DNA of 32,000 nt. It comes from Crocosphaera subtropica ATCC 51142 (GTDB taxonomy: Bacteria > Cyanobacteriota > Cyanobacteriia > Cyanobacteriales > Microcystaceae). The notes under the pieces were generated by a model that saw only the letters and a program-made list of their open reading frames with translations, was not told the origin of the DNA and searched no databases. How positions within the stretch are numbered: position 1 is the first letter of the stretch; every line of letters starts with the position of its first letter. The stretch lies in the NCBI RefSeq assembly GCF_000017845.1, contig NC_010546.1, positions 4,650,001 to 4,682,000 of the forward strand, in the 5' to 3' direction. The position numbers were made by a program, and so were the translations under genes. Positions 50 to 27,983 of the stretch are shown here, piece after piece.

Positions 50-2041
50 TCATAATTCCGAATTCCGAATTCCGAACTCTGAACTCAGGTTTTGATAACG
101 TCCCAATGCAATTAAAGGAAAATAATGACGATAGAAATGATAGCGGATATAGAAATGACAAGGAAAACCGGTGCCAGTAAATTCTGATTCTTCCCAAGTT
201 CCTTCCTCGGTTTGGGTGTTTAATAAGTAGCTAATTCCCCGTTGAATACTATCAGTTTCAAAATGATTTAAGGCTTCTCCTGCATCTAATAACCCAATTA
301 AAGCCCAGGCAGTTTGCGAGGCGGTACTAATGCCCTTTCCTTTGAGATTAGAATCGTTATAACTCCAGCAGGTTTCGCCCCAACCACCGTCCTTATTTTG
401 ACAGCTTAATAACCAGTTAATTCCTTGTTCGATTTGGGGTTGATGTTTTTCGGGATTAATAACAGCTAAGGCAGATAAGACACCACTGGTTCCATAAATA
501 TAATTTACGCCCCAACGACCAAACCAACTACCATCCTTTTCTTGTTCTTTGTATAAATAATTAAGGGCTTTGTTAAGGCGTTTACTTGATATTTCTAGGT
601 CACAACTGCCCACCATTTCCACTACCCTAGCAGTGACATCGGCAGTATTCGGATCGATCATGGCTTTTAAGTCACCGTAAGGGACTTCGTTTAACCAAGC
701 TTGATCATTATCTACATCAAAAGCAGCCCAACCGCCCTCTTTACATTGCATGGTTTCTATCCATTTGACACAACGATTAATGGCTGCTTGTTTACGGGCT
801 TCATCAGGTAATTTTATGCCATTTAACGCCATAACAACCACCGCAGAATCATCAATATCTGGGTAGAAACGATTGGTAAATTCAAAAGCCCATCCACCGG
901 GTTTTCCTGTTTTATTTTTAACCGCCCAGTCGCCATATTCAAGGCATTGTTTCTCTAATAACCATTTTCCTGCTTTTACTAAAGAAAAATGATCTTTCGG
1001 TAAACCTGAATTCGTCAAAGCTCGTACACACCAAGCTGTATCCCATACAGGAGAGACACAAGCTTGCACCCGATAAGTTTCATTTTCTTCGATAGAAAAG
1101 CGATCAATAGCTTCAAATCCTCGTTGAACAGAAGGGTCGTTAACATCATAATTTAACACCCGAAAGGCTAACAAAGAATTGACCATTGGGGGCATAATTC
1201 CTCCCCAATCTCCTGTTTCTTGTTGATGGTTTAACATCCATCTTTCTGCTGCTTGAAGTCCTTTTTTTCGGAAGGGAACTAAGTCAACTTGTTCAGCAAA
1301 TTTGAAGACCTTATCTAACCCTAAAAAGATGTCACCCCAATTATTATTTTTCGGTAATTCATACTTGACATTTTCGATCCCTTCTGCATATAATTCATCA
1401 AGATTGAAGATAGGATCGACGGCAAAAACTGGCTTATCGTTAAAGACAATAATTAAAGGGACAGTGCTTTCTCTTGCCCAACTTGCCATTTCATAAATAG
1501 TGAAAGGAAAACTATTAGGAAATAACATGATCCACGGGGGAATAGAAGGAATTCCTTTCCAGCTATAACAACCAATTAAAGCAAGGTGAAACTTAGTAAA
1601 AATTCGGGTTTTGCTAATACCCCCTTTACTAAGAATAAAGTCTTTGGCGCGAATTAAGGCCGGGTCATCTTGGGGAACGCCTAATAAACGCAGGGCCATA
1701 TAAGCTTCGACGGAGGTACTAATTTCTCCCCCGTCTCCATAGAAGAGTTCCCATCCTCCCTGTTCCCGTTGTTGTTGGCGTAAATACGCTTCAACTTTAT
1801 GAAGGGGACGGGTTTTATCGGTTCCCCATATTTTATGAAGTAAGACTGTTTCGGCTGTTAGAGTAATGTTAGACTCTAATTCTGCCCACCAGTAGCCTTG
1901 AGGATATTGTAGGGATAATAAATAATTTTGGCTGGCGGTGATGGCATCATTGAGGGATAAAGCGGGTTTTTGGGTTTGTCTGTCTCGCGTTTGCATCGCT
2001 ATTTCCGTTACACTCCTTCGATATTCTTTATAGGTTAGCAA
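50..2041 (-). CDS. shc: Squalene-hopene cyclase
   Basis: 663-aa ORF with repeated QW-type motifs (GGW/GxW) and the class II terpene cyclase catalytic motif DIDDSAVV (DxDD). The true start may be the internal MQTRD. The last ~12 codons and the stop lie inside a heptamer repeat array. Confidence 0.9.
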   Translation of the reverse strand: MLTYKEYRRSVTEIAMQTRDRQTQKPALSLNDAITASQNYLLSLQYPQGYWWAELESNITLTAETVLLHKIWGTDKTRPLHKVEAYLRQQQREQGGWELFYGDGGEISTSVEAYMALRLLGVPQDDPALIRAKDFILSKGGISKTRIFTKFHLALIGCYSWKGIPSIPPWIMLFPNSFPFTIYEMASWARESTVPLIIVFNDKPVFAVDPIFNLDELYAEGIENVKYELPKNNNWGDIFLGLDKVFKFAEQVDLVPFRKKGLQAAERWMLNHQQETGDWGGIMPPMVNSLLAFRVLNYDVNDPSVQRGFEAIDRFSIEENETYRVQACVSPVWDTAWCVRALTNSGLPKDHFSLVKAGKWLLEKQCLEYGDWAVKNKTGKPGGWAFEFTNRFYPDIDDSAVVVMALNGIKLPDEARKQAAINRCVKWIETMQCKEGGWAAFDVDNDQAWLNEVPYGDLKAMIDPNTADVTARVVEMVGSCDLEISSKRLNKALNYLYKEQEKDGSWFGRWGVNYIYGTSGVLSALAVINPEKHQPQIEQGINWLLSCQNKDGGWGETCWSYNDSNLKGKGISTASQTAWALIGLLDAGEALNHFETDSIQRGISYLLNTQTEEGTWEESEFTGTGFPCHFYIRYHFYRHYFPLIALGRYQNLSSEFGIRNSEL
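54..89. repeat. Heptanucleotide tandem repeat (AATTCCG x3, then AACTCTG and AACTCAG), STRR-like
   Basis: Direct reading shows period-7 tandem copies. It is related to the CTCCGAA arrays at 6699-6730 and 9971-10009. Confidence 0.85.
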
Positions 2042-2168: not shown

Positions 2169-2305
2169 AAAGAGAGATAGGTAGTTTCAATGACTATCAA
2201 AATGTGTAGTTAATTATGTTTAGATACTTATTTATATTTATGTATATTCGAGCTTTTAGAAATAAAAAGCTGTTAAAATATAATAGTGAGATAGTGAATA
2301 AATAA

Positions 2306-4495
2306 GTGAAAAAGAAAACATTAAAATTTATTGATTTATTTGCTGGTATTGGTGGTTTTAGATTAGCTTTTGAAAAAGCTGGTTATCATTGTGTTTATTC
2401 TTGTGAAATAAATGATCATTGTCGTCAAGTGTATTATGATAATTTTGGTGAATTACCCGATCAAGATATTACTAAAATAATTCCTAAAAATATTCCTGAT
2501 TTTGATATTTTAACGGCTGGTTTTCCTTGTCAACCTTTTAGTATTTGTGGAAAAAGAGAAGGTTTTAAAGATACTAGGGGAACATTATTTTTTCATATCT
2601 GTGAAATCATAGAAGTGAAGAAACCTAAAGTTATTGTTCTTGAAAATGTTAAACATTTAATTCATCATCAGCAAGGAAAAACTTTAGAAACTATTATCTA
2701 TGCGTTAGAAGATTTAGGCTATTTAGTTGACTATAAATTACTGAATGCCAAAGATTTTGGGGTTCCTCAAAATCGAGAAAGAATTATTATTATTGGTACA
2801 CTTAATAAAAAATTTAATTTTGATTTGATTGATATTCAGAAGAATGTTCCTAGTCTTAGAAGTTTTTTAGATCAGAAAGGAAATTTTGAATATTTAGACC
2901 CGAAAGAATATACATTAATTCAAGAACCTAAAAAACAATTATCAGGTTTAATTTTTATTGGTTATCGTAATAAAAATATCTGGAAAAAAGGAATAAGACC
3001 AAATACTGAACATCTATCTAGAGTTCATCGTCAACCGAATAGAATTTACTCAATAGATGGGGTTCATCCAACTTTGCCATCTCAAGAAACATCAGGACGC
3101 TTTTTTATTTATATTCCTGAAGAAAACGCAGTTCGTAAATTAACTTTAAAGGAATGTTATAGAATTATGGGGTTTCCTGATGATTTTATCATTCATAGTA
3201 GTACCGCAGAAGCTTATAAGCAAATTGGTAATTCTATTTGTGTTCCTTTGTTTAAAGAAGTAGCAATTCAATTAAAAGAACAAATTTTCCAACAGGAACA
3301 ATCTCAAGATATCAGCTTTCAAAAAAACATTGATCAATTTAACTGTAAATCATTAAACTTACAATTAGAAATAACAGGTATGACTATCATGAATCATAGA
3401 GAAAAATTACTAGAACTATATGATTTATCTGCAGAAGTTAGTAATATTCAAGATTTAATCCCTTCAAATTATATAGATTATATTAATGTTATTGCTACAA
3501 ACTGTAAAAAACAAAAAGGAGTCTATACTGTTTTAATCACTTTATTAACCCATAAAATTCTTAATCCGAATCAAGATATTAGATATCATCAAAAGAATTT
3601 ACCTGGGGGTTTTTCAGGAAGAACTATCGATACTCAATACATTACACCAACTTTAAAAGAGTTAGGACTTCCTGCAATGGCAGAAAGCGGATGGTTAACT
3701 CGTTCTCTTGAACAACCTTATCCTTATACCCTAGATTATAATGGTAATATTAGTAATAAAAAAGTAAAAGAAGCTTTCTTGAATTTAATTGATTTTGTCG
3801 AAACCTATCCTAATAATACAGAAATTATACTTAAAATTTTGTTCTCAGAAGTAAGAAAAATAACGGAAGCAAATAAAATAAAAATTATTAAATTAAACAA
3901 CCCTGAAAAATTCGATATTGCTACTATTGTTAACTGTTTGGACTATCATTTTAATTTTAACTATAAAACTCATGGTGCTTCTAAATTACCCGTATTAGCT
4001 TTTTATGCAATCTATCAACAATTAATCCAAGAAGTTGAAAGATATAAATCATGTCAACTCAATCCATTAGGGAGTCATACCGCATCAGATAGAACATCAA
4101 AAACAGCAGGAGATATTGAAATTATAGGAAATAGGAAAACCCTACTAGAAGTTATTGAAATTAAACAGGGTAAACCTATCGATCTGCAAATTATTCGTAT
4201 TGCAAAAGATAAGATTATAAAATTTAATCCTCGTCGTTACTGTATCTTTTCCTCTGCTAATATTAAAGTCGAACAATCAGAACTAATTGAACAAGAAATT
4301 AAAAAGATAAGAGAGACTCACGGTTGCCAGATTATTGTTAATGGTATTATTCCCACGCTAAAATACTATCTAAGACTCTTAACCTCCGTTGAAAATTTTA
4401 TTAATAACTACTCAAACTTAGTAGAATCTGATCCAGAATTACAAGCCATTCACAAAATAAAATGGAACGAAATATTATTCCAACTAGAAATATAA
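2306..4495 (+). CDS. DNA (cytosine-5) methyltransferase fused in frame to a ~370-aa PD-(D/E)XK-like C-terminal module
   Basis: The N-terminal ~320 aa carry the C5-MTase motifs FAGIGG (I), GFPCQPFS (IV), ENV (VI), QNRERIIIIG (VIII) and GNSICVP (X). A GTG start is forced: TAA lies immediately upstream and motif I begins at residue ~12. The C-terminal part has no MTase motifs but contains GDIEI-x12-EVIEIKQGK. The locus is very AT-rich. Confidence 0.85.
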   Translation: MKKKTLKFIDLFAGIGGFRLAFEKAGYHCVYSCEINDHCRQVYYDNFGELPDQDITKIIPKNIPDFDILTAGFPCQPFSICGKREGFKDTRGTLFFHICEIIEVKKPKVIVLENVKHLIHHQQGKTLETIIYALEDLGYLVDYKLLNAKDFGVPQNRERIIIIGTLNKKFNFDLIDIQKNVPSLRSFLDQKGNFEYLDPKEYTLIQEPKKQLSGLIFIGYRNKNIWKKGIRPNTEHLSRVHRQPNRIYSIDGVHPTLPSQETSGRFFIYIPEENAVRKLTLKECYRIMGFPDDFIIHSSTAEAYKQIGNSICVPLFKEVAIQLKEQIFQQEQSQDISFQKNIDQFNCKSLNLQLEITGMTIMNHREKLLELYDLSAEVSNIQDLIPSNYIDYINVIATNCKKQKGVYTVLITLLTHKILNPNQDIRYHQKNLPGGFSGRTIDTQYITPTLKELGLPAMAESGWLTRSLEQPYPYTLDYNGNISNKKVKEAFLNLIDFVETYPNNTEIILKILFSEVRKITEANKIKIIKLNNPEKFDIATIVNCLDYHFNFNYKTHGASKLPVLAFYAIYQQLIQEVERYKSCQLNPLGSHTASDRTSKTAGDIEIIGNRKTLLEVIEIKQGKPIDLQIIRIAKDKIIKFNPRRYCIFSSANIKVEQSELIEQEIKKIRETHGCQIIVNGIIPTLKYYLRLLTSVENFINNYSNLVESDPELQAIHKIKWNEILFQLEI
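3380..4495 (+). other. C-terminal module of the MTase ORF; possible independent restriction-endonuclease-like ORF starting at ATG 3380 or 3389
   Basis: In-frame ATG codons at 3380 and 3389 follow a Q/S-rich linker directly. A D-x(n)-E-x-K pattern is encoded at 4112-4165. The A7 tract at 3321-3327 lies just upstream. Confidence 0.4.
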
Positions 4496-4699: not shown

Positions 4700-6499
4700 A
4701 TGGCTCTCATTGTCCAAAAATACGGGGGAACCTCCGTCGGGTCTGTCGAAAGAATTCAAACCGTTGCCCAACGTATTCAAAAAACGGTTCAACAGGGAAA
4801 TACGGTGGTTGTGGTTGTGTCTGCAATGGGAAAAACCACTGATACCCTAGTTAGTTTAGCTCAAGAAATCACTGCTAACCCTTCCCGACGGGAAATGGAT
4901 ATGTTACTCTCCACAGGAGAACAGGTAACGATCGCCTTGATGACCATGGCCTTACAAGAAATAGGACAAGCAGCCATCTCCTTAACCGGCGCACAAGTTG
5001 GCATTGTAACCGAAGCAGAATATAGTCGGGCCCGCATACTCTCCATTAAACCCGATCGCATTAAACGCCATCTAGACAAAGCTGAAGTCGTTGTCGTCGC
5101 AGGGTTTCAAGGCATCAGTTCCAGGGAAAATTTAGAAATTACCACCCTGGGCCGGGGAGGTTCCGACACCTCCGCAGTCGCCCTCGCAGCAGCCCTAAAA
5201 GCCAGTTTTTGCGAAATTTACACCGATGTTCCAGGGATTTTGACCACCGACCCCCGAATTGTTCCAGAAGCAAGGTTAATGGACGAGATTACATGCGATG
5301 AAATGCTAGAATTAGCCAGTTTAGGGGCGAAAGTATTGCACCCTAGGGCCGTGGAAATTGCCCGTAATTATGGGGTTCGCTTGGTGGTGCGATCGAGTTG
5401 GAGTGATGCACCAGGAACTAGCGTTATTTCCCCTATTCCCAAACCCAGATCCCTCGAAGGGTTAGAAATTGCCAAAGCAGTGGATGCCGTAGAATTTGAT
5501 GGAGAACAGGCGAAAATTGCCCTATTACGGGTTCCCGATCGCCCTGGAATCGCAGCCCGTTTATTCGGCGAAATAGCCCATCAACAGGTAGATGTAGACT
5601 TGATCATTCAATCTATCCACGAAGGGAATAGTAATGATATTGCCTTTACCGTGATCAATAATGTATTAACCAAGGCCGAAGCAGTTGCAGAAGCGATCGC
5701 CCCCGCGTTACGTACTACTCCTTCTAATGTCACAGAAGCAGAGGTAATGGTAGAAACTGGTGTGGCTAAAATATCTATCGCTGGTGCCGGAATGATTGGC
5801 CGGCCAGGCATTGCAGCGACAATGTTTAAAACTCTCGCTGAGGCCAATATAAATATTGAGATGATTTCTACTTCAGAAGTGAAGGTCAGTTGTGTCGTCG
5901 CTAAAGAAGACGGCGATCGCGCTATAAAAGTTTTATGTGAAGCCTTTGATGTAGAATTATCCCCGAACCCTGTAGCCTCCCAAGCAGTGGAGGTGTCGCC
6001 TCCGGTGCGTGGGGTAGCCTTAGATCAAAAACAAGCTCAAATTGCCATTCGTCATGTGAAAGATAAACCAGGGATGGCGGCCAGTATTTTTGGTGTTTTA
6101 GCAGAAAATAATATTAGTGTCGATACCATTATTCAATCGCAACGGTGTCGTATTTTGGACGGAATGCCTACCCGTGACATTGCTTTTACTGTTTGTGAAG
6201 GGGATGCAAAAGCAGCGTGTCAGGTATTAAGTAGTCTATCCGATGGTTTTGATGAGGTGATTGTCGACGAAGATATCGCTAAAGTGAGTATTGTCGGCGC
6301 TGGTATGGTGGGACAACCTGGGGTAGCAGCCAAGTTTTTTGGTGCCTTGGCGACGGAAAACATCAATATTAAAATGATTGCCACCTCTGAGATTAAAATT
6401 AGTTGTGTGGTTCCCAAAGAACAAGGGGTTAAAGCATTAAAAGCGGTTCATCAAGCGTTTGAGTTAGCTGGGATAGAAAAGGTAGAAGTTTCGGCTTAA
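4700..6499 (+). CDS. lysC: Aspartate kinase, cyanobacterial long form with duplicated ACT regulatory region
   Basis: The N-terminus is VQKYGGTSVG...VVVVSAMGKTTD and the kinase core has GRGGSDTSA. Two successive ACT-pair regions follow (AKISIAGAGM...NIEMISTSE and AKVSIVGAGM...NIKMIATSE). Confidence 0.93.
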   Translation: MALIVQKYGGTSVGSVERIQTVAQRIQKTVQQGNTVVVVVSAMGKTTDTLVSLAQEITANPSRREMDMLLSTGEQVTIALMTMALQEIGQAAISLTGAQVGIVTEAEYSRARILSIKPDRIKRHLDKAEVVVVAGFQGISSRENLEITTLGRGGSDTSAVALAAALKASFCEIYTDVPGILTTDPRIVPEARLMDEITCDEMLELASLGAKVLHPRAVEIARNYGVRLVVRSSWSDAPGTSVISPIPKPRSLEGLEIAKAVDAVEFDGEQAKIALLRVPDRPGIAARLFGEIAHQQVDVDLIIQSIHEGNSNDIAFTVINNVLTKAEAVAEAIAPALRTTPSNVTEAEVMVETGVAKISIAGAGMIGRPGIAATMFKTLAEANINIEMISTSEVKVSCVVAKEDGDRAIKVLCEAFDVELSPNPVASQAVEVSPPVRGVALDQKQAQIAIRHVKDKPGMAASIFGVLAENNISVDTIIQSQRCRILDGMPTRDIAFTVCEGDAKAACQVLSSLSDGFDEVIVDEDIAKVSIVGAGMVGQPGVAAKFFGALATENINIKMIATSEIKISCVVPKEQGVKALKAVHQAFELAGIEKVEVSA

Positions 6500-7426: not shown

Positions 7427-9472
7427 TTACTGTTGTCTATGATACACAGTCATTAAATTTCCTTGAGCATTGTAAACTTCGATAGACTTACCAGTTTGAT
7501 TACTGATTTTTTGTAAGCGGTGTTCAAAGGTAGAAAGATGGTTGAGTAGTTCGACTTGAATTTGTAAATTCCCTTGTGCTTTTGCTTGTAACGCTGTCAT
7601 CCATACCTGCTCTAAATACTGGGATTCTAGTTTCATTTTTATTGATTCTTCTGTTATTTGATAATCACATATTTTTTGTTTCATGGTACACATGGTATCT
7701 AATTCTGCATTAATCGTTTTTGATTGTGTTAATTGATTTAACTGATTAGTAGCTTTGTTTAGGGATAAATTGTAAGTTGAAATAAACGGTTGAATTTGAT
7801 TGCCTTTAAAGGTATTTTGAGGAATTTTTTTAATATAAACCATAGCCATATTCCAGTAATTAACAGCTTGCGACCATTGATTATTTTCTTCGGCTTTTTG
7901 TGCTAAATTAGAATAATTGTTAGCTTCCTCATACAGTCTAACTGCTATTTCTTCTTGTTTTTTCCGTTGTTGCGCTCTTGTTTTATGGGATAAATAGGTT
8001 TTTAAAAGAGGACGAGAAGATTGATAAACTTTTGTGTTGGGTTGTATTTCTTGTAACCGTTTTGTCGCTGTTAACCAAGTATTATAAACCAATTCTAAAT
8101 CTTTTAATTGATGGGCAGTGTTTTCTCTTTTTTGAGCTAATAATGCTGCTTCCTCAGCTTGTTTTAAACTTTTCTGTGCTTGTTTTTCTAGGGCAATTTT
8201 ATTATTAATTTCTTCAATGCTTTGTGAATATTTTTCATGGTCTTTGTTTTCTACCTCATCTAAAAATTGATTATTTTTAATCGTTGTGATTGTTTTAATT
8301 CCTGTTTCTATTTCTTTTTTTGTTGTTTCTAATTTTTCGATAGATAAAGAAGAATTTTTATATAAATACATTGCTTCATCTATTTGCTCTCTTGCCGAAT
8401 TTAATAATACTATGTTGTTTAGCCTTTGTTGATATTTTCCTTTTAATTGAGAAGATTTTTGATGATAATCTGACCAAAAAGGAATCATGTCTAATAATTT
8501 AATAGCTGATTCTAACTTTATTCTAGCCATATTTAAGTCAGAATTAGAAGTATTATTATTTAATAAAATCTCAGTCTCATCCGAGAGTTTTTGAGCTTGC
8601 TTAATTTCTGAACATCCATTAAAAATACAAGGACGAGTTAAGCCATAAAAAATAGTTAACAGTGTCAAAGTTCCCAAAGTTCCACTAATTACTAACCATG
8701 ATAACTGATTAGATTTAAAGTTATTATGCAAAGACTTAATGAACCCTTGATACCAGTTCATTATTAAATTTTTATGTTTTTTTACAAAAAATCGCCTATC
8801 TTTGTTGAATAGTTGCCAAGCTAAAATTTCGAGCAGACTGGGTTGCTTACCTAAGTCTAAAAAACAATATTCCCCATTGATGTAATAGTAAATTTCAATA
8901 AAATAAGCGTGAGCTAAATTTTCTTGTTTTAAAATTTTATATAAAAAAGCTTCAATTTTTTCTAAATTGAGAGAATCATTATTATGAAAATCAACTAAAA
9001 TCAATAAAACTTCTCCTAAAAAACAATTAATCGATAACGGAATAGAACCTAATATGAATTTTGTTAACTGTTTTTTCAACAGTATTTCTAAGTCCGTTAA
9101 TCTAGTCGTATTAGGGATAGTATTGATCCTTACTATCTCTTCGCTATCATCAATTGTCCCATCTAGTAAACTGGATTGCTGATTTAAGTCTAAAAAACAA
9201 TATTTCCCATTGATGTAATAGTAAATTTCAATAAAATAAGCGTGAGCTAAATTTTCTTGTTTTAAAATTTTATATAAAAAAGCTTCAATTTTTTCTAAAT
9301 TGAGAGAATAATTGTTATGAAAATCAACTAAAATAAGTAAAACTTCTCCTAAAAAACAATTGACGGATAGTAGAACAGATCCTAAAGCCGATTTTTCTAA
9401 CTGCCTTTTTAAGAGTATTTCCAAGGTCGTTAATCTTGCCGTATTAGGGATAGTATTCATCGAGATCACCAC
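7427..9472 (-). CDS. Membrane-anchored protein of unknown function with a duplicated ~100-aa N-terminal domain and a long helical C-terminal region
   Basis: 681-aa ORF. Residues ~6-104 and ~117-215 are near-identical repeats. A hydrophobic segment LSWLVISGTLGTLTLLTIFYGL lies at ~aa 258-280. The remaining ~400 aa are Q/K/E/L-rich and helical-looking. No catalytic motifs seen. Confidence 0.75.
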   Translation of the reverse strand: MVISMNTIPNTARLTTLEILLKRQLEKSALGSVLLSVNCFLGEVLLILVDFHNNYSLNLEKIEAFLYKILKQENLAHAYFIEIYYYINGKYCFLDLNQQSSLLDGTIDDSEEIVRINTIPNTTRLTDLEILLKKQLTKFILGSIPLSINCFLGEVLLILVDFHNNDSLNLEKIEAFLYKILKQENLAHAYFIEIYYYINGEYCFLDLGKQPSLLEILAWQLFNKDRRFFVKKHKNLIMNWYQGFIKSLHNNFKSNQLSWLVISGTLGTLTLLTIFYGLTRPCIFNGCSEIKQAQKLSDETEILLNNNTSNSDLNMARIKLESAIKLLDMIPFWSDYHQKSSQLKGKYQQRLNNIVLLNSAREQIDEAMYLYKNSSLSIEKLETTKKEIETGIKTITTIKNNQFLDEVENKDHEKYSQSIEEINNKIALEKQAQKSLKQAEEAALLAQKRENTAHQLKDLELVYNTWLTATKRLQEIQPNTKVYQSSRPLLKTYLSHKTRAQQRKKQEEIAVRLYEEANNYSNLAQKAEENNQWSQAVNYWNMAMVYIKKIPQNTFKGNQIQPFISTYNLSLNKATNQLNQLTQSKTINAELDTMCTMKQKICDYQITEESIKMKLESQYLEQVWMTALQAKAQGNLQIQVELLNHLSTFEHRLQKISNQTGKSIEVYNAQGNLMTVYHRQQ
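8828..9457. repeat. In-frame tandem duplication, period 333 bp (111 codons)
   Basis: By-eye alignment of 8853 onward against 9186 onward shows about 124 bp with a single mismatch, then a few mismatches, then clearly diverged sequence. Confidence 0.9.
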
Positions 9473-15473: not shown

Positions 15474-16607
15474 ATGGCTAAATCTCATATCAAAAATTCC
15501 TTTATTAATATAATTATCGCCATATTCGTTGTTTTCGCTATTACTTTATACTTCTATTTTTTAAAATTTGATGGTAATATTACAGGGTTTTTTCGCATTG
15601 GCTCAATTTTACCCATTTCTCCTTTTTTAAATGCTGAAAACACTTTAATTTATCAAGGAGAAATTGGTTATGATGGTCAACAATTTTTAAGTTTAGCCCT
15701 TGACCCTTTTTTACAAAATCCTGAAACGATTAATAGTTTAGATCATCCAGTTTATCGTTATCGTCGTATTTTGTATCCTTTAGTTAGTTATGCTTTAGCT
15801 TTGGGAAATAGAAGTTTAATTCCTTATATGATGGTGATAATTAACGCTATTTCTATTGTCCTTATTGTTGGTCTTACAAATTTATATTTCAAATCCGATC
15901 ACGTATCAAAATTTCAATCTCTTTTTACCCTATGTATTCCTGGGGTTTGGATGGTTTTATCGTTAGGAACGGCTGATTTATTTAGTAGTGTCTTTTTAAT
16001 TGCTTCTTTTTATTGTTATCGTTACGAAAAATATAAGTTAACAGCCTTATTTATTAGTCTAGGTTGCTTAACCAGAGAAACCTTATTAATTGTTTGGTTT
16101 GCTTTATTTTTGACCAGCTTATTACAACGAAAATTTAAACAAATTCAATATTTGTTATGGGCATTAATTCCTCCTATTTTCTGGACAGTTTATATAAGTT
16201 TTTTAAATTTACCTGGAAAAGTAAGGGTCAAAGATAATTTTGGTTTTCCTTTTATGGGAATTATCAATAAATTGACTAATATCCTAACAGGAGGTTTTAG
16301 CGGAAGAAACTTGTTTGAAGCTTATATGTTTTTCATTTTACTGCTAAGTTTCGCTACAATTTTTATTATTTATTTTAAACATCGTCAACCTAATTTCTTA
16401 ATGCAGATAGGTAATAGCTTCTATGGTTTAATGTTTGTGTTCAGTAGTATTACAATTTTAGGATACTACTTAGATTATTCAAGAGTTTTTATGGATGTTT
16501 ATTTTTTATTGTTGTTAAGTATTAATTTAACCAGAATTCCCTATAAAACTATCTTATTCTCAGCATCAGGGATAGGAAGCTTAGCTTTCTTGATTTTACA
16601 TTCTTGA
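15474..16607 (+). CDS. Polytopic integral membrane protein of unknown function
   Basis: The 377-aa protein has about 9-10 hydrophobic segments and is very AT-rich and F/Y/L/I-rich. No catalytic motif is recognised. It could be a GT-C-like or glycopolymer-related membrane protein. Confidence 0.65.
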   Translation: MAKSHIKNSFINIIIAIFVVFAITLYFYFLKFDGNITGFFRIGSILPISPFLNAENTLIYQGEIGYDGQQFLSLALDPFLQNPETINSLDHPVYRYRRILYPLVSYALALGNRSLIPYMMVIINAISIVLIVGLTNLYFKSDHVSKFQSLFTLCIPGVWMVLSLGTADLFSSVFLIASFYCYRYEKYKLTALFISLGCLTRETLLIVWFALFLTSLLQRKFKQIQYLLWALIPPIFWTVYISFLNLPGKVRVKDNFGFPFMGIINKLTNILTGGFSGRNLFEAYMFFILLLSFATIFIIYFKHRQPNFLMQIGNSFYGLMFVFSSITILGYYLDYSRVFMDVYFLLLLSINLTRIPYKTILFSASGIGSLAFLILHS

Positions 16608-26330: not shown

Positions 26331-27983
26331 TTATATATTTTTTTCATACACATTCAAATCAAAATTATCTAACGCCCAAGTTCCGATTAATTTTTGAGAA
26401 CTCTGTAAATTATAATCATTATCTAAAACCGTTTTAACCGCTTCTTTTTGTTCTTCTGTACTAGGTTTTCCCCAAACCGGACGTTGACTATCTAACCATA
26501 AAATACGTTGGTATTGTTCGGGATTTTTACTTAAATTTTTAGCTAAAACAGGGGATAAATTATTAGATTTCTGCGCTAGTAAACTAATAGGCGAAGTAGT
26601 AGGAAGATAATAAGCTAATCTTAATACATGACCCCACGCTTGAGAATTCATGATAATTAAAGTAGGGGTATCAGGTTGTTCATTAATAATATCTGCTACC
26701 CGATGAAACATCCAACGAGAACGTAAACCAAAATCAGCGATATTAATCCCTAAATATAATAATAATAACCCTAAAATAGCAATATTTTTAAACTTTATAC
26801 CTGCTTTTTCTATCCAGACAACTAATAATAATAAACAGCCAGGTAACACAAATATGACAGAACGTCCAAACCCAAACGCCAAGGTAAATTTTCCTGTAAT
26901 AATATCTATAGTTAACATTAATAATAAAGGAAATAAACCTAATAGCAAGCTAATTATTAATAATTTAATTTGATTCTTTTTATATAAACTCCAACTACAA
27001 TACAGTAAACCAATAAAAACTAAAAAGCCGAAAGTAGTTATGATAAAATTTGGTAGAATACTCGACCAATCACCTACTAATAAATGAATTCCTAACACAT
27101 CAAGAAATTCTTGTAAATGTTGAACCATTGCACTTAAAAAACCACCTTTATTTGAAAATCTCCCTAGATCAGCATTTCTCAATTGTTGTCTAGTCCCCCA
27201 CCACAGCCAAGGAATAGTAATAATAATACTACTAATTAAATAAAGTGCATATTGCCACCATCTTTGTCTGTCTAAATATAAAACTAAAACAGCAAATACG
27301 AAAAAGAAAATAGTAAAATAGTAAAATGTCATTAGCCCTGATGCTGCTGATAAAATTAATAAAACTGTCCAGAAAAGCTTAGATAATTGAGAATTATTTT
27401 TATGAGTTTCTGAGGTATTTAAGCTAATTAATTCTAGTAAAGACCAACTACTTAACAAAACCCAAAACACCAATGAGCCATACATTCTCACATTTAAAGA
27501 GTGAAAAAGATAATAAGGATTTAAACCCAATAAAGCAGTAAATAATAAACCCCCTTGAAACCCTAATAATTTTCTACCTAAACCATAAGCACATCCCAGA
27601 GAACCAAGACTAAATAAAACTATAATACTTCGCATTGCTGCTTGAGAATTTCCCCATAATCTTAACCAAAAATGCTGTTCTAAAAAGAAAAGAAAGGGAT
27701 GAGGTTCGGCCACTAATCCTTTAAGAAAGTTTTCAAAAGTAACAAGAACATCAGAAAAACTATTTTCAACAGGAAGGATTAATAAACGGGTATAATTAGC
27801 TAAAATAATTGGTACATCTTGAGGTGTTTGATATCTTGCTTTTTGTCCAGTGGATAATAATAAAGATAAGACCTCATCGTACCACAATTCTCTACTACCT
27901 AAATTAATAATTCTCAGAATTACAGCACAGGCGATCGCAGCTAAAAGAAGTATATTAATGATTTTTGTCGAAATTTTCATCAA
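26331..27983 (-). CDS. Glycosyltransferase family 39-like (ArnT/PMT-type, GT-C fold) membrane protein
   Basis: The 550-aa protein has >=10 TM segments, an N-terminal motif RELWYDEVLS (LWxDE type) after TM1, and a soluble C-terminal domain. Confidence 0.75.
   Translation of the reverse strand: MMKISTKIINILLLAAIACAVILRIINLGSRELWYDEVLSLLLSTGQKARYQTPQDVPIILANYTRLLILPVENSFSDVLVTFENFLKGLVAEPHPFLFFLEQHFWLRLWGNSQAAMRSIIVLFSLGSLGCAYGLGRKLLGFQGGLLFTALLGLNPYYLFHSLNVRMYGSLVFWVLLSSWSLLELISLNTSETHKNNSQLSKLFWTVLLILSAASGLMTFYYFTIFFFVFAVLVLYLDRQRWWQYALYLISSIIITIPWLWWGTRQQLRNADLGRFSNKGGFLSAMVQHLQEFLDVLGIHLLVGDWSSILPNFIITTFGFLVFIGLLYCSWSLYKKNQIKLLIISLLLGLFPLLLMLTIDIITGKFTLAFGFGRSVIFVLPGCLLLLVVWIEKAGIKFKNIAILGLLLLYLGINIADFGLRSRWMFHRVADIINEQPDTPTLIIMNSQAWGHVLRLAYYLPTTSPISLLAQKSNNLSPVLAKNLSKNPEQYQRILWLDSQRPVWGKPSTEEQKEAVKTVLDNDYNLQSSQKLIGTWALDNFDLNVYEKNI

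Follow-up and report, generated by a model that had tools for sequence, protein, structure and literature searches.

Can an m5C (5-methylcytosine) DNA methyltransferase and its partner restriction endonuclease exist in nature as one polypeptide? This question is raised by a gene in a 32,000-nt stretch of DNA from the cyanobacterium Crocosphaera subtropica (Cyanothece) ATCC 51142; we refer to the whole stretch as the window and give coordinates as window positions. The initial annotation of the gene, at 2306..4495, had left two options, an unusual single-polypeptide m5C restriction-modification (R-M) or defence enzyme, or a C5-cytosine methyltransferase (C5-MTase) coupled to an uncharacterised DNA-processing domain. 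It is likely, in our judgement, that the gene encodes a natural single-chain Type II R-M enzyme that uses m5C and that descends, as the sequence comparisons and structural models described here indicate, from a coupled operon whose methyltransferase (M) and endonuclease (R) genes have fused. Because homologs of its second half lie beside an HhaI-like MTase, because this half has a predicted EcoT38I fold, and because its D/E/K residues are conserved, the first option is supported and the second is not favoured.

The single reading frame claimed for the gene was borne out. It runs through 729 codons. With 61 and 94 stops in the remaining two forward frames of the same segment, an open frame of this length is not a product of chance. 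The encoded protein is 100% identical to ACB53859.1 / WP_009543436.1 from C. subtropica ATCC 51142 and was recovered at 100% identity and coverage (P0271) in a full-length protein search. The database label of the ATCC 51142 record is “putative site-specific DNA-methyltransferase,” with no nuclease mentioned.

By homology, residues 1–333 are a complete C5-MTase with its own target-recognition domain (TRD), and methyl transfer is predicted. Residues 6–324 match PF00145 end to end (model positions 1–323 of 324, E = 6e-94, 315.5 bits against a cutoff of 22), TIGR00675 gives E = 1e-92 (311 bits, cutoff 100.65), and the top PDB sequence match is M.HhaI (E = 7e-68). All five C5-MTase motifs named in the initial annotation are present in the translation (Table 1), and the TRD is placed between motifs VIII and IX, as required of this class. 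The model of the domain has a high predicted local distance difference test score (pLDDT) except in the catalytic loop (77–92) and a TRD loop (225–243). The likeness to M.HhaI (GCGC) covers all of the ten-motif architecture, and the “Q..RIYS” of TRD loop 1 and a T-L dipeptide are conserved. However, TRD loop 2 has diverged (TLPSQETSG in the window protein versus TLSAYGGG in M.HhaI), and the window protein adds a C-terminal tail of ~40 residues and the fused endonuclease. R.HhaI is a smaller protein and is not known to be related.

The second half, earlier put at ~370 residues, has 368. At least 3424 R-domain homologs with E <= 1e-3 were found among the candidates scored, forming 873 clusters at 50% identity. 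Most are free-standing proteins of ~366 residues, which start MNHKEKLL in alignment with Met362 of the window protein (MNHREKLL); the second half is homologous to such proteins at 55–68% identity. When Pfam, NCBIfam, PADLOC and PHROGs were searched directly with the C-terminal half, nothing significant was returned, and PDB sequence and profile searches with the R domain gave no real relative and did not return EcoT38I. Matches to Tako8 and IGPD in the PDB were dismissed as repeat or chance matches, and a faint hint of YraN on the catalytic strands (E = 0.3–0.7) is not evidence alone.

Comparison at the level of fold, which the initial annotation had proposed, pointed to a restriction endonuclease. 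An AlphaFold2 model of residues 362–729 (pLDDT 91.4; predicted template-modelling score, pTM, 0.85) was compared with the PDB using Foldseek, and the best match was EcoT38I in complex with DNA (7edb_A), aligned over its full length in 379 columns with E = 2e-10, probability 1.00 and template-modelling (TM) scores of 0.62/0.65. The significant fold matches were three EcoT38I chains only; the next, Mus81 and others, had E > 0.1. The two enzymes are of similar size (350 residues for EcoT38I, PDB 7EDB/7E8R, and 368 for the R domain) but share 14–16% sequence identity, and EcoT38I is a free-standing protein. EcoT38I is an isoschizomer of BanII and recognises GRGCY^C. Because the MTase partner of the R domain is HhaI-like, the specificity of the R domain very probably differs from this.

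The D/E/K residues sit at the catalytic strands of the modelled fold. The initial annotation had read 4112..4165 as a D...(D/E)xK nuclease core, and the coordinates (D603 to K620) and the assignment hold, but the spacing it gave, twelve residues, does not: eight residues lie between GDIEI and EVIEIK, and D603 stands in a D-x11-E spacing to E615 and a D-x14-E spacing to E618. In the AlphaFold models, D603 directly precedes strand 604–607, and E618-I-K620 sit in strand 613–620. Across 52 family members, down to 27% identity, the D and the K are the sole strictly invariant columns and E618 is at least 90% conserved, making D/E/K the most conserved positions of the whole family. D603, E615, E618 and K620 are invariant across 35 fused proteins that diverge to ~50% identity, and D/E/K are invariant in family alignment A3 too. 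Glu576, a candidate extra metal ligand, is also invariant in A3 (as E215) and is present in 33 of the 35 fused proteins, with Q in the others. On this conservation and the modelled PD-(D/E)xK geometry, which is canonical, the motif is the predicted catalytic core of a genuine family of restriction endonucleases.

Could the R domain nevertheless have ceased to be a nuclease, and have been co-opted as an additional module with which a solitary, regulatory m5C methyltransferase binds or targets DNA? Cyanobacteria are rich in solitary methyltransferases (PMC6105098), databases label the protein as a methyltransferase alone, and, as initially annotated, no second R-M component was found near the gene among the window ORFs (open reading frames) examined. 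However, a module used for binding only would be free to lose the four catalytic residues that the 35 fused proteins all keep. In addition, the low G+C content of the gene (~0.28 versus 0.39–0.48 for its two neighbours), a pattern typical of horizontally acquired DNA, and the patchy distribution of the fused-gene family across phyla are typical of mobile R-M systems. We consider a purely regulatory module quite improbable, and favour an R domain that is still an endonuclease.

Some R-domain homologs are named “restriction endonuclease, SacI family” by NCBI, after a family (PF09566) counted as PD-(D/E)XK (PMC3424549). The label rests on marginal PF09566 scores; homolog P0073, for example, scores 20.4 bits where the cutoff is 19.3. 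No match to PF09566 at E <= 1 was obtained for the window protein, and only 2 of the 52 diverse family members match at E <= 0.01. We therefore rejected placing the R domain in Pfam RE_SacI, of which it is at best a distant sister family that has no model of its own. In JGI records, many of the free-standing ~366-residue endonucleases (P0013, P0020, P0023) carry the name “DNA (cytosine-5)-methyltransferase 1” and contain no methyltransferase domain, an annotation probably carried over from fused proteins. In one further homolog, of 575 residues (P0210), a Peptidase_S24 (LexA-like) domain comes after the R domain.

The origin of the fusion is recorded in its relatives. Relatives are encoded at 355 loci recovered in a genome scan, of which the best 80 were analysed and underlie the locus counts given here. 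In 79 of these 80, R has an HhaI-like M orthologue (57–92% identity) either beside it or in the same frame; the exception, L078, is truncated, starting 25 bases from its contig end, and in L079 the gap between M and R is 1.5 kb. Separate genes, mostly M then R, occur in Bacteroidota, Proteobacteria, one archaeon, the cyanobacteria Microcoleus, Planktothrix and Coleofasciculus, and some Nostocales; the order is R then M in 3 loci. In non-cyanobacterial loci the M tail overlaps the start of R by 50–62 nt, mostly 56 nt. In split cyanobacterial loci M ends “...IQLxIPGLxL*,” and its stop overlaps the ATG of R (ATGA, gap −4) or lies a few bases off. In 39 cyanobacterial loci the junction is open and reads “...IQLEIxGxxxMNH...,” giving one frame of 727–773 codons, fully intact in ~35. 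Finished chromosomes with the fusion include those of Microcystis sp. BLCC-F210, Capilliphycus salinus and Anabaenopsis elenkinii. In the full-length protein search, fused proteins (696–759 residues, 50–87% identity) formed more than 100 clusters, almost all labelled “DNA cytosine methyltransferase” alone, among them proteins of Stanieria PCC 7437, Pleurocapsa and Nostoc and, at ~50% identity, of the Firmicutes Terrisporobacter, Oscillospiraceae and Virgibacillus.

Split Type IIP M-R operons have an HhaI-like C5-MTase (57–77% identity) and an endonuclease (53–68%) that are orthologous to the two halves of the window gene and in the same order; the “IQLxIPGL” tail of M and the “MNH” with which R begins are likewise shared. 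In the operons, however, the stop of M overlaps or abuts the start of R and two separate proteins are made, whereas in the window this stop is gone, no other lies between the domains, and a single chain of 84 kDa is predicted; at the level of the gene, the separate polypeptides of an orthodox two-gene Type IIP system are thus absent. Comparison with the split relatives places the origin of the fusion in such a two-gene operon. By the same alignments the fused protein is M with its tail followed by R, and the linker is the former tail, which in split relatives finishes at the M stop codon. The window gene is accordingly read as a recent fusion of a known two-gene type, widespread in databases and annotated there as a methyltransferase only. 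A small indel, or loss of the stop, at the ATGA overlap would join the two frames. A frameshift five codons before the M stop was also considered and dropped, since “QLAIPGLQAMEH” (Spirulina) keeps the M frame up to the junction.

The Q-rich linker described initially is real. Residues 334–360 have pLDDT < 50 in the full-length AlphaFold model, which consists of two folded domains without defined inter-domain packing (pTM 0.47); as modelled, the fused protein is two autonomous enzymes on a tether. Both split and fused forms conserve a motif, “IQL(E/K)I..G,” where M ends. It is nevertheless predicted to be disordered, and may be a protein contact motif or may reflect a constraint from the start of R translation. 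Across dozens of AT-rich fused sequences the linkers have diverged almost wholly yet are always open, and the chance of 40 stop-free codons at this base composition is ~0.03 per sequence. The open linkers, together with the conserved active sites of both halves, imply that purifying selection acts on each half and keeps the junction open.

Split genes with a 4-nt overlap are common in the relatives, and a single base error could turn such a pair into an apparent fusion. The window gene might then be a sequencing or assembly frameshift artefact, or a fresh accident of the pseudogene type, of what are really two ordinary genes. Many homologs are indeed split, but it is not the case, as the initial annotation had allowed, that all are: the same fusion appears in 39 independently assembled cyanobacterial loci, finished chromosomes included, and in the more than 100 protein clusters, with linkers always open. 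The probability of such an error is negligible. The conserved catalytic sets and the open junction argue against an artefact, a pseudogene and a dead nuclease domain alike, and for a maintained fusion.

The junction bears on a further possibility, that the working endonuclease is a free protein of ~42 kDa translated from the internal ATG at Met362, in which case the full-length chain would be mainly an MTase with a passenger domain and the system would be a two-protein, Type IIP-like one. Of 35 fused cyanobacterial loci, ~33 retain the ATG, and Firmicutes-type fusions often have a Met close to the junction. Split relatives begin R translation at exactly this codon, at or within the M stop, and in the window an AGG lies 10–12 nt upstream of it. 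However, the ATG is replaced by ACG in L021 and by GTG in L025, and several Firmicutes-type fusions have no Met there, yet their R domains are intact; the codon is thus dispensable. The MNH is conserved as part of the first helix of R, so the Met may be kept for structural reasons, and, as there is no stop between the domains, ribosomes that set out from the M start must make the full fusion whatever happens at internal starts. We regard a free endonuclease as the working form as unlikely, though less so than the loss of nuclease function discussed above, and prefer the single chain as the working enzyme.

The fusion appears to have occurred more than once. In a neighbour-joining (NJ) tree of concatenated M and R sequences, most fused sequences form one large clade, sister to split Coleofasciculus/Microcoleus, and fused and split Nostocales are interleaved. 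The spacing between “QLEI” and “MNH” is five residues in the large clade and three in the Nostocales, the P0354 group has a different linker without MNH, and the Firmicutes type has very short linkers. These at least four junction types indicate that fusion happened several times. Four or more separate fusion events, or fusions some of which later reverted, would account for this pattern; as the tree method is simple, the number is provisional. In two longer and more distantly related proteins, P0199 (1008 residues) and P0221 (1060 residues), a different C5-MTase is followed by an unassigned middle part of ~300 residues and an R domain of the same family, which keeps GDIEI...E.VEVK.

We next consider the recognition site. 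A GCGC core is suggested by the similarity to M.HhaI. Among NGCGCN hexamers, the cyanobacterial hosts are most depleted in TGCGCA (observed/expected ratio, O/E, 0.11–0.13), and in non-cyanobacterial hosts GGCGCC was observed 0 times versus 9.3 expected. Non-palindromic NGCGCN hexamers are not depleted in cyanobacterial hosts and are weakly depleted in the others (AGCGCC, O/E 0.51). TGCGCA is the specificity of cyanobacterial enzymes such as AosI, MstI, FspI and AviII. A GCGC-core hexamer such as TGCGCA is a candidate site, and only a lead. A relatedness to HaeII-type enzymes is unsupported, as no family of restriction endonucleases matched the R half in the Pfam scans.

How might such an enzyme work? 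An M.HhaI-like MTase and a cognate PD-(D/E)xK endonuclease of the EcoT38I fold, each with its own recognition elements, would be joined by a flexible linker of ~28 residues. The M domain would act as a monomer and methylate host sites, probably palindromes centred on GCGC. Cleavage of both strands of incoming, unmethylated DNA would require the R domains of two chains to pair, as in the EcoT38I dimer; this pairing is suggested by the two EcoT38I chains present with DNA in 7EDB, and by analogy the endonuclease probably acts only after dimerisation of the chain. One promoter and one translation event would give obligatory 1:1 co-expression, and every endonuclease molecule would be synthesised together with its antidote. 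In a newly entered cell, modification would come before restriction because cleavage would depend on concentration-dependent dimerisation, and a whole defence system would be packed into a single mobile gene of 2.2 kb. A comparable “regulation by assembly,” in which monomers are M+R− and dimers R+, has been proposed for Type IIC enzymes (PMC12707154).

At the level of the gene, with R and M in one chain, the window enzyme falls under Type IIC by definition. The characterised single-chain R-M enzymes have all been described with an N6-adenine methyltransferase (PMC3039593, PMC4081073), in agreement with the initial annotation. These Type IIC/IIG/IIL enzymes (Eco57I, MmeI, BcgI, BpuSI, BtgZI) likewise combine restriction and modification in one chain, and in BtgZI the MTase is N-terminal and a PD-(D/E)xK variant C-terminal (PMC4081073). 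The characterised enzymes, however, have an N-terminal PD-(D/E)xK domain and a gamma-class N6-adenine MTase (alpha-class in BtgZI), and in most of them R and M share one specificity module and the cut falls some distance away from an asymmetric or bipartite site (PMC4081073, PMC3039593). The window enzyme, in contrast, has the order M then R and a C5-cytosine MTase, and each half is a complete homolog of a stand-alone enzyme with its own recognition elements. It is predicted to work like an orthodox Type IIP system whose two proteins are tethered.

The closest parallel is man-made. In RM.Eco29kI the Eco29kI endonuclease was fused to its m5C MTase; the engineered protein kept both activities and restricted phage 100-fold (PMC3039593), which supports the feasibility of a single-chain m5C R-M enzyme. 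Both are one polypeptide with a Type IIP endonuclease and an m5C MTase. RM.Eco29kI was built by removing the overlapping stop and start of a head-to-tail pair, and the window enzyme probably arose by the same route. In RM.Eco29kI, however, R is at the N-terminus, the nuclease is of the GIY-YIG type and the junction is two glycines, whereas the window enzyme is natural, has M-R order, a PD-(D/E)xK nuclease and a disordered linker of ~28 residues, and belongs to a form that is evolutionarily maintained and arose repeatedly. The authors of the Eco29kI fusion had suggested that head-to-tail systems might have natural bifunctional derivatives of Type IIC, as yet unidentified (PMC3039593). Our literature searches found no natural characterised m5C R-M fusion, although REBASE may already list putative ones, and found nothing specific on the fused-protein accessions or on restriction in Cyanothece 51142. 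Judged from its sequences, the fused family is a natural counterpart of the engineered m5C fusion, recurrent, selected and common in public data. It is not a new principle of defence.

The gene architecture, the homology of each half to a stand-alone enzyme, the origin from an operon and the conservation of both active sites are the firm part of this account, as read from the sequences, and several points weigh against the remainder. R-M activity of the one chain is predicted from gene sequences and models. The ancestral ATG of R is kept in most fusions, and a free R protein could be made from it. Many unrelated palindromes are as depleted in the same hosts as the GCGC-core hexamers, so no site can be assigned from avoidance. 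Decayed copies occur elsewhere, as is usual for R-M systems, and any one copy may be inactive: in L035 a stop interrupts the frame directly after the R start (MNHK*KLL, about 6016–6030 of that locus), M is spread over three frames in L031 (3738–4716), R is truncated in L044 (3435–4076), and M has an internal deletion in L059 (5548–5898). Finally, an advantage of fusion is not obvious, given that in vitro methylation by the engineered Eco29kI protein was poor and its protection 100-fold weaker than that of the wild type (PMC3039593).

A broader proposition is that C5-MTase::Type IIP-endonuclease fusions are a widespread, naturally selected class of one-gene R-M systems, with at least four independent origins from translationally coupled M-R operons, in which tethering makes restriction dimerisation-gated and never uncoupled from modification. 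We advance this tentatively, at somewhat short of even chances. If true, a single mobile gene of 2.2 kb would be a defence system in itself, one that can do without a controller protein or promoter logic. In a stronger version, the “IQLEI..G” tail or linker motif may mediate contact between M and R or between chains, and split systems may also form physical M-R complexes.

Among the cyanobacteria whose finished genomes carry members of the family are model and bloom-forming ones (Cyanothece 51142, Microcystis, Stanieria, Anabaenopsis). They amount to a natural experiment, a toxin and its antidote at a fixed 1:1 ratio without separate regulation, with split and fused orthologs available for direct comparison. 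They also expose an annotation gap: a predicted endonuclease is hidden in many genomes under the label “DNA cytosine methyltransferase,” and it matters for the poor transformability of these cyanobacteria. A palindrome-cutting, m5C-based single-chain enzyme could be a useful scaffold. The finding is likely to surprise readers outside the R-M field, and mildly so those within it.

Table 1. Features of the fused gene and its immediate surroundings in the window (AdoMet, S-adenosylmethionine; aa, amino acids).
Feature	Position	Strand	Description
Whole fused M-R gene	2306..4495	+	One ORF, 729 codons + stop, GTG start
M domain, aa 1–333	2306..3304	+	Predicted complete M.HhaI-like C5-cytosine DNA methyltransferase with own TRD
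MTase motif I FAGIGG (AdoMet binding), aa 12–17	2339..2356	+	F12, G14, I15, G16, G17 invariant in 35 fused proteins
MTase motif IV GFPCQPFS, aa 72–79, catalytic Cys75	2519..2542	+	C75 invariant in 35 fused proteins
MTase motif VI ENV, aa 113–115	2642..2650	+	E113 invariant in 35 fused proteins
MTase motif VIII QNRER, aa 155–159	2768..2782	+	R157, R159 invariant in 35 fused proteins
MTase motif X GNS, aa 308–310	3227..3235	+	N309 invariant in 35 fused proteins
Linker, aa 334–361, Q-rich, with conserved “LQLEITG”	3305..3388	+	Former C-terminal tail of M, predicted disordered
Retained ancestral R start codon ATG (Met362)	3389..3391	+	Free-standing homologs start here
R domain, aa 362–729 (368 aa)	3389..4492	+	Complete Type II PD-(D/E)xK restriction endonuclease, EcoT38I-like fold (predicted)
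Glu576, candidate extra metal ligand	4031..4033	+	Acidic, end of helix 558–576 preceding catalytic strands
Predicted catalytic core D603-x11-E615-x2-E618-x-K620 (GDIEI...EVIEIK)	4112..4165	+	D603..K620, GDIEIIGNRKTLLEVIEIK
Candidate promoter TTTAGA-18-TATAAT	2255..2284	+	22 nt upstream of GTG start
Squalene-hopene-cyclase-like gene	50..2041	-	Neighbour on one side of fused gene
Aspartate kinase gene	4700..6499	+	Neighbour on other side of fused gene

Promoter-like sites are no commoner in the region than in shuffled sequence, and the site upstream of the fused gene is a candidate only; the same scan of the region found no terminator.

Extra MTase pieces lie near some fused genes. In two Microcystis loci (L009, 7357–7674; L012, 7361–7628) a second M N-terminus (residues 1–106, 60–75% identity) is found ~170 bp downstream, and in a Crocosphaera metagenome-assembled genome (L001, 4175–4615) an MTase fragment with 36% identity lies upstream of the fused gene. 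Such pieces could be left over from earlier systems, or from an insertion that duplicated its target.

In Crocosphaera, both in the window and in L001 (7737–9533), the gene next to the R-M unit encodes aspartate kinase. In split-type Microcoleus/Oscillatoriales loci an aspartate kinase gene (67–70% identity) lies ~0.2–1.4 kb downstream of R on the opposite strand. It is 4.5 kb from R in L049 and is also found in L044 (4608–6404), L047, L050, L051, L053, L054 and L056; the neighbourhood is thus common to distant cyanobacteria.

Elsewhere in the window, 7427..9472 (−) is a low-G+C ORF of 681 residues without a Pfam match. Its N-terminus consists of two tandem copies of ~110 residues, ~90% identical (NTIPNT.RLT.LEILLK...NCFLGEVLLILVDFHNN.SLNLEKIEAFLYKILKQENLAHAYFIEIYYYING.YCFLDL), followed by a long coiled-coil-like region rich in Q, K and E. 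Two further low-G+C ORFs without a Pfam match, 15474..16607 (+, 377 residues) and 26331..27983 (−, 550 residues), lie among housekeeping genes, namely an RNase J-like gene, hisD, a short-chain dehydrogenase/reductase gene, chlL/chlN, a radical-SAM MqnC/CofH-like gene and ftsW/rodA.

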